32,000 nt of DNA from Vulcanisaeta distributa DSM 14429 (GTDB taxonomy: Archaea; Thermoproteota; Thermoprotei; Thermoproteales; Thermocladiaceae): contig NC_014537.1 of the NCBI RefSeq assembly GCF_000148385.1, positions 1,290,001-1,322,000 on the forward strand. Direction: 5' to 3'. Positions 1,785 through 22,290 of the stretch are shown piece after piece; position 1 is the first letter of the stretch; the number at the start of each line of letters is the position of its first letter. The position numbers and the translations under genes are program-made. The notes under the pieces were generated by a model that was not told the DNA's origin, did no database searches, and saw only the letters and a program-made list of their open reading frames with translations.

Positions 1785-2702
1785 TCAAGGTTCCTCGCCA
1801 CGTTTAATTGGGGCACCACGACTTATCCAATCAAGCCAGGAACCAAGGTAAACCCTAACCTTACTAAAGCCAAGTAACTCTGTTAAGGCAAACCACACAA
1901 GGGCCGACCTACCGCCAGTCCTACAATAAAGTATTATGTTGTCATTTTGTGAAAGTCCGTACCTATCAACCACCTTCACAATCTCATCACGATCCCTAAA
2001 CCTATTGGTTCTGGGTTCGAGAAATAGATTCCAGGGCATGTTAATGGCGCCTGGTATATGGCCCCAAATATCCACGTCACTACCCATGTACTCACAGGGA
2101 GACCTAACATCAATAAGTAGCGTATCACCGCCAATATTTCCATTGGTAACCAGCTCGTATACTTGATCGAAATTGACGAAATAATCCTTAAGATTAACAA
2201 CTACATTCAACCAATCCCTTTGATTGAAATTACTGCTATACACGTGTCCATTACATGTGCATAGAGGGCCCTTATGTATTAGCCAATTTACCTTACCACC
2301 GTTAAGCAATGATATGTGTTTAAAACCAAGAGCCTTTAATACCATGTAGGCTAATGCCGCGTGCCTATTATCAATCTCATCAAGAAGCACGATATGCCTA
2401 TCCCGGGTTATGCCCTTAACGGCTAAATCCATGATTAATGCTTCATAATCCCTTATAATGCCCACATCACGTAATAAATCACCATAAAGTCTTAACAATG
2501 TTGAACCAGGTATATGCCAACTGAGGTATCCAGCCCCTGGATTCTCGTCTATCTCAACTACGATATAGGGACTAGAAATAAATGAGGCGAAGCCACGATT
2601 AAGATAGCTCAGTATATCCTCCACCTCGGTTAATGACTCCACAAATATGCGATGGTAATACGATTTATAAGTATGGATTATTAGTGCATTTTTTACATAC
2701 AT
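1785..2702 (-). CDS. Tandem-domain rhodanese (thiosulfate/3-mercaptopyruvate sulfurtransferase family)
   Basis: 305-aa ORF. The C-terminal domain carries the catalytic loop YCRTGGRS followed by GSWLDW, and HIPG motifs occur in both domains. It is a paralogue of the 10275..11186 ORF, with the same C-terminal ...IK(R/K)G(E/Q)EP. Confidence 0.8.
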   Translation of the reverse strand: MYVKNALIIHTYKSYYHRIFVESLTEVEDILSYLNRGFASFISSPYIVVEIDENPGAGYLSWHIPGSTLLRLYGDLLRDVGIIRDYEALIMDLAVKGITRDRHIVLLDEIDNRHAALAYMVLKALGFKHISLLNGGKVNWLIHKGPLCTCNGHVYSSNFNQRDWLNVVVNLKDYFVNFDQVYELVTNGNIGGDTLLIDVRSPCEYMGSDVDIWGHIPGAINMPWNLFLEPRTNRFRDRDEIVKVVDRYGLSQNDNIILYCRTGGRSALVWFALTELLGFSKVRVYLGSWLDWISRGAPIKRGEEP

Positions 2703-2800
2703 TTGTATATATCTCTATAAATATGGATATAGATAAGCTAACTGCGCAAAAACTGCATAGTTATCAATAACATATTAAGTTCCGCATTGGTTGTAAATCG

Positions 2801-3259
2801 ATGGCTGAGGAAAGAAAATTGGGCATTGTATTCGCATCGGGTGCCGCAAATAGGATTTGCTGCCTAGTGGTTTATGGCGCAGCTGCACTGGCGGCTGGTT
2901 ATAAGGTAGTCGTTCACCTGGTTAATGAGGGATTGGTCGCCTTTAGGAAGGATGTATTACCAAGACTAAACACCCAGGACCTGGGCGTGACGATAGGACC
3001 GGCTATGTATGTCCCCTACATAGAGACGTACTTAAGGAATTTAAAGAATGCCGTGGAGAAGGGCGAGTTTAAGGACTGGTACTCATACCTGAAGGAGCTT
3101 AAGTCGGTCTATGGCGATAAATTCAAAATATACGCATGCCCACTTGCCGCACAACTCTATAACATAAAGAAGGAGGACTTAGTGGACATAGTGGACGAGA
3201 TTAAGGGTGCGGAGTCATTCCTTGAGGAGGTCTATGGAGGACCGATACTGTATTTATGA
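2801..3259 (+). CDS. DsrE/DsrF-like sulfur-relay family protein (DsrE2/DsrE3-type, 'predicted peroxiredoxin' group)
   Basis: 152-aa ORF. N-terminus KLGIVFASGAANRICCLVVYGAAALAAGYKVVVHL is a Rossmann-like DsrE fold signature. There is a conserved Cys in IYACPLAAQLY. The gene is divergent from a rhodanese. Confidence 0.6.
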   Translation: MAEERKLGIVFASGAANRICCLVVYGAAALAAGYKVVVHLVNEGLVAFRKDVLPRLNTQDLGVTIGPAMYVPYIETYLRNLKNAVEKGEFKDWYSYLKELKSVYGDKFKIYACPLAAQLYNIKKEDLVDIVDEIKGAESFLEEVYGGPILYL

Positions 3260-3308
3260 TGTGAAGTAAATAAAGCCGAATAACATATCTTTAAAAATGA
3301 TCATTATA

Positions 3309-4649
3309 TCACTTGCGTTGTACCTTGAACCCAGGCTTAGTTAATTCCTTAAGGTTAAGGATGTTATCAATCTCATCATCACTAAACCCCAACTCCTTAA
3401 GTACGTCCCTAATGCTGCGGCCCATCATTAATTCCCTGCTCAATTCAGCAGCCTTCTCATAACCTATCATGGGCGTGAGCATGGTTATCAAGGCCAGTGA
3501 TTTCTCAGCATATCTACGCATGACATCCACGTTGGGGGTTAACCCATCAATCACGAGTTTCGTGAACTTCCTAATTCCCTCACTCAATATACTCATCTCC
3601 ATGATTATGTCATAACCAATGACTGGTATACCCATGCTTAACTCAAACTCCCCAAGCATTGAGGCATGCTCAATCGACTTATCGAGGCCCAATACCTGCG
3701 CTATAGCCTGTAAAAGGGACTCCACGGTAACTGGGTTAGTCTTACCAGGCATTATGCTAGACCCAGCAACCTCGCCTTGTGTAGGTATGTCTATCTCATT
3801 AAGCCCTGTGAACGGCCCTGAAAACATTAGCCTAATATCCTGGCCAAGCCTATGAAGGTCCAGTGATAGTGCCTTAATTGCACTTGATAACATTACTAAA
3901 TCGGTGAGTAATTTCATAGACATGAACGGGTTAACCCTTACGAAATCCAGCCCAGTTACCTCATTAATTACCTTAACAACCTCATCACCAAATCTTGGAT
4001 GCGTATTAAAGCCAGTACCGACCGCGGTACCACCAATTGGTAATCCCTTAACGAAGTTGATGGTATAATCGAGTAATTGAACGTCACGCAAAAACGCATC
4101 TAGGTAACCGGATAATTCCTGACCAAGGGTTACCGGCAACGCATCCCTTAAGTGTGTTCTACCGGGCTTAACAATATCACTAAACTCATTGACCTTCCTA
4201 CGTAGTGAGACTATTAAATCATTAATTGCAGGCCTTAATGACTCCACGTACTCCATAACTGCGGCAACCCTAATGGCCGTGGGCACAACATCATTTGATG
4301 ATTGGCCAAGGTTCACGTGATCGTTGGGATGCACCTTAACACCGAGATCCAAATATGCGTGCTTAGCGATGACCTCATTAATATTCATGTTTAAGCCGGT
4401 GCCAGAACCGGTTTGATACACGTCAAGTATTACCTCATCATCATACTTACCACTCATTAATTCTTGGGAGACCCTCATTATTGCACTACCAACATCACTA
4501 CTTAATAGCCCAAGCTCCACATTAACCTTGGCTGCGGCATACTTAATGAGCCCCATCGCCCATATTATCCTACGCGGAAACCTAGTACCCGTGTCCAGGT
4601 AGAGATCCCTCGCCTTCTCTACAAACTCCACAATAATAAATTCAGGCAT
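3309..4649 (-). CDS. fumC: Class II fumarate hydratase (fumarase/aspartase superfamily)
   Basis: 446-aa ORF. It has the superfamily signature GSSIMPGKTNPV, and YQTGSGTGLNMNINEVIA (QTGSGT favours fumarase over aspartase). Confidence 0.75.
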   Translation of the reverse strand: MPEFIIVEFVEKARDLYLDTGTRFPRRIIWAMGLIKYAAAKVNVELGLLSSDVGSAIMRVSQELMSGKYDDEVILDVYQTGSGTGLNMNINEVIAKHAYLDLGVKVHPNDHVNLGQSSNDVVPTAIRVAAVMEYVESLRPAINDLIVSLRRKVNEFSDIVKPGRTHLRDALPVTLGQELSGYLDAFLRDVQLLDYTINFVKGLPIGGTAVGTGFNTHPRFGDEVVKVINEVTGLDFVRVNPFMSMKLLTDLVMLSSAIKALSLDLHRLGQDIRLMFSGPFTGLNEIDIPTQGEVAGSSIMPGKTNPVTVESLLQAIAQVLGLDKSIEHASMLGEFELSMGIPVIGYDIIMEMSILSEGIRKFTKLVIDGLTPNVDVMRRYAEKSLALITMLTPMIGYEKAAELSRELMMGRSIRDVLKELGFSDDEIDNILNLKELTKPGFKVQRK

Positions 4650-4872
4650 ATATTTAATAATGCGATTGCTGAGTTCGCGAATCTAAACTGTAAAGGTACG
4701 TCTTAAGAATGCATGAACTATGACAAAAATCTTCGAAGTATACCTATTAAGACACATCATATGTTTAACGGTATTATAAAATACTATAAATATGTATAGA
4801 AGCTAATATTTTTGTTCATAATTTAAGATAAATAAATACAGTTTTATTAATATCAGGAACGCATGCATTAAC

Positions 4873-5787
4873 GTGAGGAAGACAGCCATTCACATAATTA
4901 GGGGTAACTGGACAAGGGATGGAGCAGGCGTTAAGCTATATAGGGTATTTGGCGATCCACGTATTGCCGAGATAACAGACCCATTTCTACTCCTTGATCA
5001 TTTCGGCTCAAGAGATCCTAATGACTATATGATGGGGTTTCCATGGCATCCGCACAGGGGTATTGAAACAGTGACCTATTTATTGAATGGGGAGGTTCAC
5101 CATAGGGATAGTACAGGGAATGAGGGGATTATTGGTCCTGGGGATGCCCAGTGGATGACCGCCGGCAGTGGTATCTTCCATGAAGAGATGCCAAAGCCCA
5201 TTAGAAAAGTTACATTGGATGGCAATGAGATTTACGACACGGAGGTTAACGGCTTTCAACTTTGGGTAAACCTACCCAGCAAGTATAAGATGAGGGTTCC
5301 TAAGTACAGGAACGTCCTCAGGAAGCACATACCAGTGGTTGAGTTGGAGAGTGGTGGTAGGGCCGTGATTATTGCGGGAAGAATTAGGGTGAGTGGTTAT
5401 GGGATTGTTGAGGGACCAGTTAATGACTTAACAACACCAATACATTACCTAGATGTTCAATTGCCCGAGGAGTCAACCTTCAATTACGAAGTTAATGATG
5501 GATATACCGCATTGATTTATATGGTTGATGGTGAAGCATCCCTTGATCAGTGGCACGTTGCTAAACGCGGGGAGCTCGTTGTCCTAACAAGAGATGGGGA
5601 TGAGGTTATAGTGAAAACAGGCGAGAAGCCCGCCAGATTCTTATTAATGGCTGGTAGGCCTATCGGTGAGCCAATTGCGTGGTATGGACCCATAGTAATG
5701 AATACCTGGGATGAAATAAGAAGGGCCTTTGATGAGCTGCGAAGGGGTACGTTCATTAAGGCAAGGCCTGAAGTCCAGGATTATTAA
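4873..5787 (+). CDS. Pirin-family bicupin protein
   Basis: 304-aa ORF with a GTG start. The metal-binding region FPWHPHRGIETVTYLLNGEVHHRDSTGN is characteristic of pirins. Confidence 0.85.
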   Translation: MRKTAIHIIRGNWTRDGAGVKLYRVFGDPRIAEITDPFLLLDHFGSRDPNDYMMGFPWHPHRGIETVTYLLNGEVHHRDSTGNEGIIGPGDAQWMTAGSGIFHEEMPKPIRKVTLDGNEIYDTEVNGFQLWVNLPSKYKMRVPKYRNVLRKHIPVVELESGGRAVIIAGRIRVSGYGIVEGPVNDLTTPIHYLDVQLPEESTFNYEVNDGYTALIYMVDGEASLDQWHVAKRGELVVLTRDGDEVIVKTGEKPARFLLMAGRPIGEPIAWYGPIVMNTWDEIRRAFDELRRGTFIKARPEVQDY

Positions 5788-20245: not shown

Positions 20246-21184
20246 GTGAGTGGCATGGCCACTCAGATAACCGTAACAACTGAACGCAGGGTTTCATCAT
20301 TAAGGCTCTTCATGACCTACATGATTCATAACCCACCAACACTCGTTGGATTCATAATAACGGTGGCATTCTACGGTTGGGCTATAATCGAGGGCGTACT
20401 ACAGCTACTGGGTACGCTACTTCATAACCCAGCAATTGGATGGGCATTACTACCATACAATCCATTTGCGGTAAACTATGCCGCCGCATTCCAACCTCCA
20501 TCATTAAAGCATATTTTTGGAACGGACAACTTAGGCAGAGATCTATTCAGTGAAATACTGTATGGAACACCGACCGAGGCCCTAATCTCAATACTTGTCG
20601 TAGGTTCGGCAATAATTATTGGAGGTCTTATAGGAATGGTATCAGGTTACTTCGGCAAGTACGTTGATGAGGCGGGCATGAGGGTCACCGACATGTTTCT
20701 GGCATTCCCAGCAATAATACTGGCATTGGCAGTGGAAGCTGCAATAGGTAGGGGCGCGGTCAATGCAGCAATAGCCTTAGTGGTTGTTTGGTGGCCAACA
20801 TATGCAAGGCTCTTTAGGGCTGAAACACTTAGGGTAAAGACGCAGTACTTCATTGATGCCGCAAAACTCTCTGGGACGAGCACGATAGGTATAATATTTA
20901 GGCACATATTCCCGAACGTGTTAACACCAGTAATTTCCTACGCAACCATTGACTTAGGTAATGTCGTGCTGGCCTATTCAATAATAAGTTTCCTGGGTTT
21001 TGGAGTACCACCACCATATCCAGAGTGGGGTAGGCTCGTGTCCGAGGGCTTTCAGTACTTCCCAGCACCCGCCTGGTGGTACGCAATAATACCTGGCGTA
21101 GTAATAACAATAGTGGTAATTGGACTTGCACTTCTTGGTGACGGAATATCGGAATATATAACGAGTGGAGGTGCAACAGTATGA
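20246..21184 (+). CDS. Opp/Dpp-type ABC transporter permease (C subunit)
   Basis: 312-aa polytopic ORF. It has HIFGTDNLGRDLFS (OppC N-terminal motif) and the EAA region YFIDAAKLSGTSTIGIIFRHIFPNVL. The track start is GTG 20246; ATG 20255 is an alternative. Confidence 0.9.
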   Translation: MSGMATQITVTTERRVSSLRLFMTYMIHNPPTLVGFIITVAFYGWAIIEGVLQLLGTLLHNPAIGWALLPYNPFAVNYAAAFQPPSLKHIFGTDNLGRDLFSEILYGTPTEALISILVVGSAIIIGGLIGMVSGYFGKYVDEAGMRVTDMFLAFPAIILALAVEAAIGRGAVNAAIALVVVWWPTYARLFRAETLRVKTQYFIDAAKLSGTSTIGIIFRHIFPNVLTPVISYATIDLGNVVLAYSIISFLGFGVPPPYPEWGRLVSEGFQYFPAPAWWYAIIPGVVITIVVIGLALLGDGISEYITSGGATV

Positions 21185-21198
21185 CCTTGTTATCTGTT

Positions 21199-21245
21199 TC
21201 AGTAAGGATGTCCCTCATCAACCTCAGGGTCTAGGGACTCATCAC
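21199..21245 (-). ncRNA. Box C/D sRNA candidate (unit C)
   Basis: Minus strand 5'->3': C GTGATGA (21245-21239), 11-nt guide GTCCCTAGACC, D' CTGA (21227-21224), GG, C' TTGATGA (21221-21215), 12-nt guide GGGACATCCTTA, D CTGA (21202-21199). All four boxes match the consensus with canonical spacing. Confidence 0.65.
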
Positions 21246-21313
21246 AGGCCCAATTAGTAGTAAATGAATGCGATGAATATATTGATTTCCTCCCAGCCAA
21301 TAAACCATGATTC

Positions 21314-21363
21314 TCAGACTTGCCAGGTGATCAGCACCTGGTCAGCCAACCCTCTTTCGTCAC
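21314..21363 (-). ncRNA. Box C/D sRNA candidate (unit B)
   Basis: Minus strand: C GTGACGA (21363-21357, 1 mismatch), 11-nt guide AAGAGGGTTGG, D' CTGA (21345-21342), CCAG, C' GTGCTGA (21337-21331, 1 mismatch), 13-nt guide TCACCTGGCAAGT, D CTGA (21317-21314). Confidence 0.5.
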
Positions 21364-21411
21364 CATAAACACTCCTTGTCCACTCACTTAAAGCCTTTAC
21401 CCCAGGACTAA

Positions 21412-21459
21412 TCAGCAGTGGTCTTTCACTTCACCAATCCGATACTGGGCCCTCATCAC
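21412..21459 (-). ncRNA. Box C/D sRNA candidate (unit A)
   Basis: Minus strand: C GTGATGA (21459-21453, perfect), 11-nt guide GGGCCCAGTAT, degenerate D' CGGA (21441-21438), TTG, degenerate C' GTGAAGT (21434-21428), 12-nt guide GAAAGACCACTG, D CTGA (21415-21412, perfect). Confidence 0.5.
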
Positions 21460-21502
21460 GAAACAATAGTAAAACCAGCCCTAATAAGTCACTCCTCATA
21501 AT

Positions 21503-21997
21503 TCACGTAACGCCCAGTGACTTCTTAACCTCATTAATCAGTTCCTGAATAATTGGTATCCTAGCCCTAACGTCATCAACGTCGATCCTAACCTCGTGAA
21601 ATCCATTTACATGGAGGAAATAGGCCTCGGTCCAGGCCCTCCATACCTTATCGCCTAGTCTACGTGCAGCCTTATCCAGTAGGCTCACGGTCCACCTACC
21701 CTTGCTTAAGGCCTCCCTGGCCTCATCAAGGCCCCTGGCAATCGCCAAAGCCTTTACGGACCCCTCCACAGCCTTGTAAAGCCTCTCACTGGCCTGAACC
21801 ACATCACCCTTATCAACGAAACTCAAGCCCTCATTAAACATGGCCAAAGCCAACTTAGCATGAGCCTTAGCAGCGCTTGGTGGATCAATGTTTAGGTTTA
21901 CCGTTAGTACATCAATGATGTAATCAATATCTAATCCATTCCTTCTAAGGATGTTAATTATGGTCTTGGGTAATTCCATGCTAATTAAATTGCCCAA
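21503..21997 (-). CDS. PaREP1-family protein (HEPN-related, Thermoproteales-enriched family)
   Basis: 164-aa ORF. GDVVQASERLYKAVEGSVKALAIARGL...SKGRWTVSLLDKAARRLG..VWRAWTEAYFLHVNGFHEVRIDVDDVRARIP matches the PaREP1 core pattern (QASEK.Y.A.E..VKALA ... GRWT...L ... LHV.GFHE). Confidence 0.8.
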   Translation of the reverse strand: MGNLISMELPKTIINILRRNGLDIDYIIDVLTVNLNIDPPSAAKAHAKLALAMFNEGLSFVDKGDVVQASERLYKAVEGSVKALAIARGLDEAREALSKGRWTVSLLDKAARRLGDKVWRAWTEAYFLHVNGFHEVRIDVDDVRARIPIIQELINEVKKSLGVT

Positions 21998-22212
21998 GAT
22001 ACTATAAAAGCCTTCTTTATTATGTGATGGTATAAATTGAAAATTAAAATATAAACGTAACTAAGATAATAATAACCTACAAGAGTGCTTTTGTAAAATA
22101 TGACCCATTGCCATGGACTACCTATATGATAATAACCATGATTATTTATTTCGATGACTATAACATGGATTACGTTAAATCATAACAGTTATTAAGTGAT
22201 TGAATGTAAAAC

Positions 22213-22290
22213 TGGTGGGCCCGGTGGGATTTGAACCCACGTCCTACGGGTCTGGAGCCCGCCGCTCTGGCCTTGCTGAGCTACGGGCCC
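22213..22290 (-). tRNA. tRNA-Trp (anticodon CCA), intronless, with genomically encoded 3' CCA
   Basis: Minus strand: GGGCCCGTAGCTCAGCAAGGCCAGAGCGGCGGGCTCCAGACCCGTAGGACGTGGGTTCAAATCCCACCGGGCCCACCA. I folded it by hand into a full cloverleaf. The acceptor stem has 7 bp, all GC. The D stem is GCTC/GAGC. The anticodon stem is GCGGG/CCCGT and the anticodon loop is CTCCAGA. The T arm is GTGGG-TTCAAAT-CCCAC, the discriminator is A, and CCA follows. Confidence 0.95.

Follow-up and report, generated by a model that had tools for sequence, protein, structure and literature searches.

Three box C/D units between PaREP1 and dppC

In the stretch of 32,000 nucleotides of the Vulcanisaeta distributa DSM 14429 genome analyzed here (the window), a dppC-like permease gene and a PaREP1-family gene converge on a gap that holds three consecutive units with the layout of archaeal box C/D small RNA (sRNA) genes. 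We call these units A, B, and C, from the PaREP1 side onward (table 1). The initial annotation had described them from the letters, and the sequence reads exactly so. Its account of the surroundings holds as well: all three units run in the same direction as PaREP1, with 43 nt between the PaREP1 stop and unit A and 14 nt between unit C and the dppC stop, in agreement with the ends of the two open reading frames (ORFs) at 21503 (minus strand) and 21184 (plus strand). It had recognized no credible ORF in the gap, where all frames are small, at 30-34 amino acids (aa). Nor does the gap resemble PaREP1 coding sequence anywhere past the end of that gene. Judging from the sequence, we put at roughly 85% the probability that the gap is a cluster of three V. 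distributa box C/D sRNA genes, predicted to encode guides for the methylation of ribosomal RNA (rRNA).

Table 1. Features of the gap and its surroundings, in window coordinates; box and guide positions run 5' to 3' along the minus strand.
Feature	Position	Strand	Sequence or remark
Gap	21185-21502		318 bp; three box C/D units on the minus strand, read from the sequence
Unit A, probable box C/D sRNA gene	21412..21459	-	48 nt; DNA 21459-21412: GTGATGA / GGGCCCAGTAT / CGGA / TTG / GTGAAGT / GAAAGACCACTG / CTGA
Unit A, C and D' half	21459-21435	-	C 21459-21453 GUGAUGA; D' guide 21452-21442 GGGCCCAGUAU; D' 21441-21438 CGGA; spacer 21437-21435
Unit A, C' and D half	21434-21412	-	C' 21434-21428 GUGAAGU; D guide 21427-21416 GAAAGACCACUG; D 21415-21412 CUGA
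Unit B, box C/D sRNA gene with variant boxes	21314..21363	-	50 nt; DNA 21363-21314: GTGACGA / AAGAGGGTTGG / CTGA / CCAG / GTGCTGA / TCACCTGGCAAGT / CTGA
Unit B, C and D' half	21363-21338	-	C 21363-21357 GUGACGA; D' guide 21356-21346 AAGAGGGUUGG; D' 21345-21342 CUGA; spacer 21341-21338
Unit B, C' and D half	21337-21314	-	C' 21337-21331 GUGCUGA; D guide 21330-21318 UCACCUGGCAAGU; D 21317-21314 CUGA
Unit C, box C/D sRNA gene	21199..21245	-	47 nt; DNA 21245-21199: GTGATGA / GTCCCTAGACC / CTGA / GG / TTGATGA / GGGACATCCTTA / CTGA
Unit C, C and D' half	21245-21222	-	C 21245-21239 GUGAUGA; D' guide 21238-21228 GUCCCUAGACC; D' 21227-21224 CUGA; spacer 21223-21222
Unit C, C' and D half	21221-21199	-	C' 21221-21215 UUGAUGA; D guide 21214-21203 GGGACAUCCUUA; D 21202-21199 CUGA
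TATA-like block, putative promoter of unit A	21481..21488	-	CTTATTAG; 22-29 nt upstream of box C, just past the PaREP1 stop
TATA-like block, putative promoter of unit B	21387..21393	-	CTTTAAG; 24-30 nt upstream of box C; present in L178
TATA-like block, putative promoter of unit C	21276..21283	-	A/T block AATATATT; 31-38 nt upstream of box C
ABC transporter permease gene (dppC-like, 309 aa)	20255..21184	+	convergent, downstream of the sRNA units; 100% match to V. distributa, PF00528
PaREP1-family gene (158 aa)	21503..21979	-	upstream of and co-oriented with the units; 100% match to V. distributa, PF05942
tRNA-Trp(CCA) gene	22213-22290	-	about 215 nt beyond the PaREP1 start

The terminal boxes of all three units fit the class, with GUGAUGA and CUGA in units A and C, and GUGACGA and CUGA, the GA intact, in unit B. 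The change of U5 to C in the latter box C is a variant kept in three related loci (L177, L178, and L015). Canonical boxes throughout are found in unit C only, for which four perfect boxes and guides of 11 and 12 nt had been noted at the outset and are read here from the sequence. Known sRNAs often show degenerate internal D' and C' boxes; those of unit A, CGGA and GUGAAGU, are non-canonical and keep their GA dinucleotides. The D' and D guides measure 11 and 12 nt in unit A, 11 and 13 nt in unit B, and 11 and 12 nt in unit C, which fits the class (10-13 nt, in RNAs of about 50 nt in total). No conserved internal structure was found in the three RNAs. Unit A is unstructured, and units B and C can form modest hairpins (z = -1.5 and -2.0, respectively) whose pairings are disrupted in relatives.

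The whole window was scanned on both strands for this architecture, allowing at most one mismatch in C, one in D', and two in C', with an exact D and guides of 9-14 nt. Units A, B, and C were the sole candidates, unit C being the best, and all three lie on one strand within 261 nt. By comparison, 100 dinucleotide-preserving shuffles of the window yielded on average 0.00, 0.01, and 0.02 candidates at up to one, two, and three box mismatches, respectively, and an architecture of the unit A type is expected 0.02 times per shuffled window. Three co-oriented units, unit A included, thus fall far outside chance.

The initial annotation had also proposed a search with the C/D models of Rfam. Run over the gap in gathering mode, the curated families gave no match. 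In the permissive (E-value) mode, every match covering the units fell on the minus strand and belonged to a box C/D family, with 11-20 bits against thresholds of 35-82, the top score being that of sR5 on unit C (20.4 bits against a threshold of 40). The best of these sub-threshold matches were to the Pyrococcus families sR5 (RF01304), sR2 (RF01139), sR11 (RF01150), sR47 (RF01131), and sR40 (RF01297). The alignments, on the minus strand, match box to box along the whole of each model but reach 16-20 bits against gathering thresholds of 39-50. Such scores come from the boxes and their spacing only. Since the likeness does not extend to the guides, the units are not members of these families.

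Predicted rRNA targets of the guides

The six guides had been taken to imply up to six methylation targets. The window holds no V. distributa rRNA, and we compared the guides with the rRNA of a congener, Vulcanisaeta sp. JCM 14467 (L129; 16S at 670-2177, 23S at 2229-5294), whose operon was found with a crenarchaeal 16S pattern (Cren499 plus 515) among the matches listed; for tRNA the test covered tRNA-Trp only. Scored by the N+5 rule, under which the pairing must cover the fifth guide position from D or D', five of the six guides form a run of at least 10 pairs with at most two G-U pairs. Sites in rRNA are predicted for five guides. The sixth, the D guide of unit A (A-D), has no target in 16S or 23S of JCM 14467, 266 of 500 shuffles being as good. 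In unit C, the D' guide pairs with 23S 1278-1287 over 10 contiguous Watson-Crick positions and the D guide forms an 11-pair run, including one G-U, with 23S 1175-1185; the two sites are 103 nt apart. The two sites of unit B are separated by 25 nt, with B-D' pairing to 23S 2059-2069 (11 pairs, two of them G-U) and B-D to 23S 2085-2094 (10 pairs, one G-U). The A-D' guide pairs with 16S 520-529 through nine Watson-Crick pairs and one G-U, a weak match that was equalled in 36 of 500 shuffles.

Single matches are not rare, the observed scores of the guides with targets being reached in 4-61 of 500 shuffles, and because matches of such quality are common A-D' taken alone is weak. The decisive property of units B and C is that both guides of each RNA point to neighboring sites. 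In a joint test, which required both guides to score at least 9 within 150 nt of the same rRNA, unit C was equalled by 2 and unit B by 5 of 20,000 shuffled guide pairs. Other high-scoring rRNA-complementary 12-mers of the window that precede a CTGA (+23535, -26059, +19, -10077, +14261, and others) lack a nearby box C and were set aside as chance matches; several are intragenic.

A mechanism may be proposed from what is known of the class. The C/D and C'/D' boxes of each RNA of about 50 nt would form a kink-turn and a k-loop, bound by L7Ae, Nop5, and fibrillarin. The guides of 11-13 nt upstream of D' and D would pair with rRNA as computed here, and fibrillarin would methylate the 2'-OH of the nucleotide opposite the fifth guide position. 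In JCM 14467 the predicted sites are U1281 and G1178 of 23S for unit C, C2063 and G2088 of 23S for unit B, and U523 of 16S for unit A. As each of them targets two neighboring sites, units B and C may also aid the local folding of 23S, a role proposed for dual-guide sRNAs.

Aligned with Escherichia coli, C2063 corresponds to C1920, in helix 69, G2088 to G1945, and U523 to U565 of 16S. The unit C sites belong to 23S domain II, U1281 falling at about 1134 and G1178 at about 1037, the latter only loosely aligned, within a variable stretch. Used as a proxy target, E. coli rRNA gave hints only, for A-D' and B-D. Both unit B targets fall in a 38-nt stretch that hardly varies among the crenarchaeal rRNAs retrieved, and the Vulcanisaeta, Caldivirga, and Thermocladium loci share one and the same A-D' target sequence. 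Given this invariance across the panel, V. distributa is assumed to share the targets of A and B. The target sequences of unit C are UGUCUAGGGAC and GAAGGGUGUCCC in Vulcanisaeta and UGUACAGGGAC and AAAGGGCGUCCC in Pyrobaculum, with other groups differing more, and the unit C guides fit the Vulcanisaeta-specific bases. A chance match to conserved rRNA would not account for such a fit.

A few further candidates were rejected. The idea that the unit C guides target both strands of 16S helix 44 had rested on their complementary GUCCC/GGGAC starts and on crenarchaeal 16S sequence; a scan of the genome collection gave 0 matches, and the predicted targets lie in 23S domain II. A 14-mer of unit C gave 38 matches, none with the remainder of the unit, which we attribute to chance. 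A 16S pattern had 0 matches in the viral collection.

Conservation and loss among Vulcanisaeta relatives

Orthologous loci were gathered through the flanking proteins, together with one metagenome hit. The initial annotation had suggested looking at such intergenic regions for conserved boxes, and in them units C and B have conserved boxes and guides, with spacers and flanks varying. In the very close L178 (isolate assembly GCA_001316145.1; PaREP1 93% identical), units A and C show no change, the 48 nt of A included, against 7-8 changes in the spacers. Unit B of L178 differs at two positions, both tolerated: R1 of box C' and guide position 1, which is unpaired. In L177, where dppC is 90% identical (67% over its last 45 nt), units B and C retain 86% and 94% identity against 13-42% in the intergenic flanks; the D guide of unit B matches at 13 of 13 positions, and both variant boxes of that unit, C and C', are kept. 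The B-C spacer of L177 is 27 nt long, and the contig ends before unit A. Unit C is again 94% identical, with its boxes intact, in L015 (dppC 89%), and for L015 and L177 together the corresponding flanks range from 13% to 70%.

Over six copies of unit C, guide changes occur at the distal positions 11-12 only, and the D'-C' spacer varies (GG, GCC, GAC). With boxes and guide cores fixed and the rest free, unit C bears the signature expected of a working guide RNA. This signature is found for unit C in five relatives and for unit B in L177 and L178. We conclude that units C and B are under selection in the V. distributa lineage. In unit B, the D guide (G1945 equivalent) is better conserved and better paired than the D' guide (C1920 equivalent). 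For unit A the comparisons are uninformative: it is identical in L178, broken in L015, deleted in L016 and L176, and beyond the end of the L177 contig. Two PaREP1 matches considered as loci of intermediate divergence for unit A, P0125 and P0128, proved to be paralogs in other contexts.

L176 and L016 carry deletions that begin within PaREP1 (codons ~27 and ~70) and extend into unit B or beyond it, so that unit A and some or all of B are lost along with the 3' part of PaREP1. What is left includes unit C with about 60 nt of its upstream sequence. L016 had seemed to align with units A and B; this proved spurious, the sequence aligned being PaREP1 coding sequence in a region with deletions in both L016 and L176. 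At these loci (L176 4315-4500 and L016 5006-5227, orthologous to window 21246-21979), independent deletions have joined PaREP1, through its 5' part, to sequence within unit B or immediately beyond it. In L176 the junction lies at a shared GGTGA microhomology. The fused frames of about 73 aa stop inside or just before box C of unit C. The unit C copy of L176 is intact. That of L016 keeps both guides and is changed in each box (ATGAATGA, TTGA, TCGATGA, and CTAA), with mutated flanks as well; its sequence suggests that it is probably inactivated, fitting neutral decay. The decay or deletion of A and B in the sister clade is normal sRNA gene turnover, and the losses may have come about by point decay and by microhomology deletions that fused a PaREP1 fragment to unit C. 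Tentatively, the locus might be viewed as a glimpse of guide RNAs arising and dying out within a single genus.

The surroundings of the units vary too. In L178 the similarity stops exactly after box D of unit C, with a different neighbor beyond: at 3791-4100, in place of the dpp operon, a T-run (CTGAtttttaataag) leads into fragmented TldD/PmbA-like ORFs. The locus has been rearranged, and the fragmentation of the ORFs may stem from a frameshift-prone assembly. The Vulcanisaeta group L005-L014 (87% identity) has an unrelated gap after dppC, and in L006 and L008 a near-identical tRNA-Trp gene lies directly in it. From this adjacency we infer that PaREP1 and the sRNA cluster are present or absent between dppC and tRNA-Trp by Vulcanisaeta lineage.

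Other elements of the same type were noted at these loci. In L005 (5017-5071, plus strand; the same in L006, and a variant in L011 at 5019) a C/D-like element follows dppC in the same orientation, reading GTGATGA GTAGGTCGGTAA AGAA CGATGA TCGTAAAATCTTGCCCCCCA CTGA, with unusually long C'-D spacing. The bases beside its box D complement 16S GGGGGGCAAG through 10 Watson-Crick pairs, a low-complexity match equalled in 100 of 500 shuffles and thus not significant. A further canonical box C/D sRNA, with no counterpart in the V. distributa window, lies between PaREP1 and the next gene in L015 (5846-5895, plus strand) and L176 (about 4150-4200, minus strand). It reads GTGATGA / CTTCAGCCTTGC / CTGA / GCAC / CTGATGA / GCCCAGGCGTCA / CTGA, has a TATA box (ACTTTAAATAGG) about 30 nt upstream, and its D' guide forms 11 Watson-Crick pairs with JCM 14467 16S 860-870 (GCAAGGCUGAA).

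Alternative readings and relation to known sRNAs

Identification as box C/D sRNA genes is well supported for unit C and supported for unit B, with its variant boxes. For unit A it is probable: the architecture fits, both terminal boxes are perfect, one guide has a plausible 16S target, and the L178 copy is identical. Several observations weigh against this view of the cluster. No Rfam family recognizes the units at its gathering threshold. The C' box of unit B (GUGCUGA) lacks the A of the GA dinucleotide, an overlapping CUGAUCA register being present, and a 7-bp hairpin in the V. distributa unit B can sequester part of its D guide. The B-D' duplex has two G-U pairs beside the target nucleotide and two mismatches in L177, and a dual guide of the B type had 0 matches in the JGI metagenomes. 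A chance background also exists, 9.8% of the window 12-mers upstream of any CTGA scoring at least 9.5. The rRNA of a congener stands in place of V. distributa's own, which is safe for the targets of B and A and less certain for those of C. In L015, identity in units A (69%) and B (64%) does not exceed that of the spacers (52-70%), the boxes of both units are damaged, box C of unit A reading GUCAUGG, and their guides are without an rRNA match (743-851 of 1,000 shuffles as good). Finally, the changes in all four boxes of the L016 copy indicate that unit C is dispensable in some lineages.

Some of these points would fit a scenario in which only unit C, or C and B, is at work, and A, possibly also B, is a relic sRNA gene that no longer guides methylation. 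The non-canonical internal boxes of A and B point in this direction, as do the orphan A-D guide, an A-D' match that is not significant alone against the shuffles and the 12-mer background, and the sister clade, where A and B are mutated without targets or deleted and hence dispensable; to these are added the imperfect B-D' pairing around the target nucleotide and the internal hairpin of unit B. Nevertheless, the B guides pair with adjacent sites in an invariant 23S region at a frequency of 5 in 20,000 shuffles, and in the comparison with L177 unit B is a conservation island with a fully preserved D guide. Unit A has perfect C and D boxes, keeps the GA of D' and C', and is unchanged in L178 where the spacers are not. 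Single-guide sRNAs with an orphan second guide are, moreover, common in Pyrobaculum (PMC6009581). We therefore hold a relic status of A or B to be possible, if doubtful. Far more remote is an origin of the box-like motifs by chance in a non-coding remnant, for example decayed sequence beside the repetitive PaREP1, with no RNA function at all. Such an origin could invoke the missing Rfam match and a rearrangement-prone region, with its deletions in L016 and L176, other neighbors in L178, and unrelated gap in L005-L014. It would have to explain three units where shuffled windows give 0.00-0.02, dual neighboring rRNA targets matched in 2 and 5 of 20,000 shuffles, the sharp conservation islands formed by C and B, and a gap unlike PaREP1 coding sequence. 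We consider it extremely improbable for the cluster, and for units C and B effectively refuted.

A different question is how the RNAs are made. The same RNAs might be transcribed with, or processed from, the 3' region of the PaREP1 mRNA, or derive from one polycistronic precursor. The co-orientation of all three units with PaREP1 and the short distance from its stop to unit A would agree with this, and so would L177, where units B and C are too close together to fit a separate TATA box between them at its usual position, and L016 and L176, where the truncated PaREP1 frame reads into box C of unit C. Co-transcription of sRNAs with other genes is also documented (PMC6009581). On the other hand, a TATA-like block stands 22-38 nt upstream of each box C; that of unit C has a counterpart (AAAATAAATAT) kept in L015 and L176, and that of unit A is present in L178 and L015. 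Independent promoters are usual for Thermoproteales and other archaeal C/D sRNAs, most of which are independently transcribed (PMC6009581). The TATA-like blocks favor, on present sequence, independent promoters, the 27-nt spacing of L177 being one that would also permit co-transcription, and we regard a PaREP1-derived or common precursor as unlikely.

The three predicted guide RNAs closely resemble the sRNAs of Pyrobaculum, for which 110 box C/D families have been described (Lui et al. 2018, PMC6009581). Common to both are the C-guide-D'-spacer-C'-guide-D layout of about 50 nt with guides of 11-13 nt, dual rRNA sites close together, targets in helix 69, orphan guides and gene decay, and a fluid genomic context near the 3' ends of genes; Pyrobaculum promoters are mostly independent. 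Unlike those families, the cluster belongs to another genus and the targets of unit C are Vulcanisaeta-specific. Since the target sequences differ in Pyrobaculum, unit C is not an ortholog of a same-guide Pyrobaculum family. In about 45% of Thermoproteales sRNAs both guides address rRNA sites at most 100 nt apart, and the accepted pairing threshold is at least 8 bp (PMC6009581; PMC4644070). Helices 68, 69, and 71 are a hotspot of 2'-O-methylation in hyperthermophilic archaea (PMC4644070; PMC6009581), and the unit B sites, in this part of 23S domain IV, are like the pan-archaeal hotspots of Dennis et al. (2015, PMC4644070); species generally differ in the exact positions that are modified (PMC4644070). 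The closely linked target pairs of B and C also fit a role as rRNA-folding chaperones (PMC4644070). If it is true that these two RNAs mainly clamp two nearby 23S segments, the small cluster would lend itself well to testing the idea of sRNAs as chaperones of rRNA folding.

The B-D' guide predicts 2'-O-methylation of the nucleotide aligned with E. coli C1920. In mycobacteria, TlyA is a protein-only 2'-O-methyltransferase acting on 23S C1920 and 16S C1409. Unit B may install, in an RNA-guided manner, the same helix 69 ribose methylation made in bacteria by TlyA. The two differ in that TlyA is a stand-alone enzyme, whereas unit B would be an RNA-guided site served by fibrillarin, with D' pairing that is imperfect beside the target. 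A literature search returned no sRNA catalog or described sRNAs for Vulcanisaeta. New for this genus are two well-supported and one probable guide RNA, unannotated and of an already known class, with five predicted rRNA methylation sites, two of them in the subunit-interface hotspot of helices 69-71. Differential retention and decay of neighboring sRNA genes is documented here among close relatives. We see in this a useful, unsurprising gain in annotation that leaves the view of how such RNAs work unchanged. On the far side of PaREP1, about 215 bp of A/T-rich sequence between its start and the tRNA-Trp gene (window 21998-22212) are without an ORF, an Rfam match, or a C/D architecture, and presumably house one or more promoter regions.

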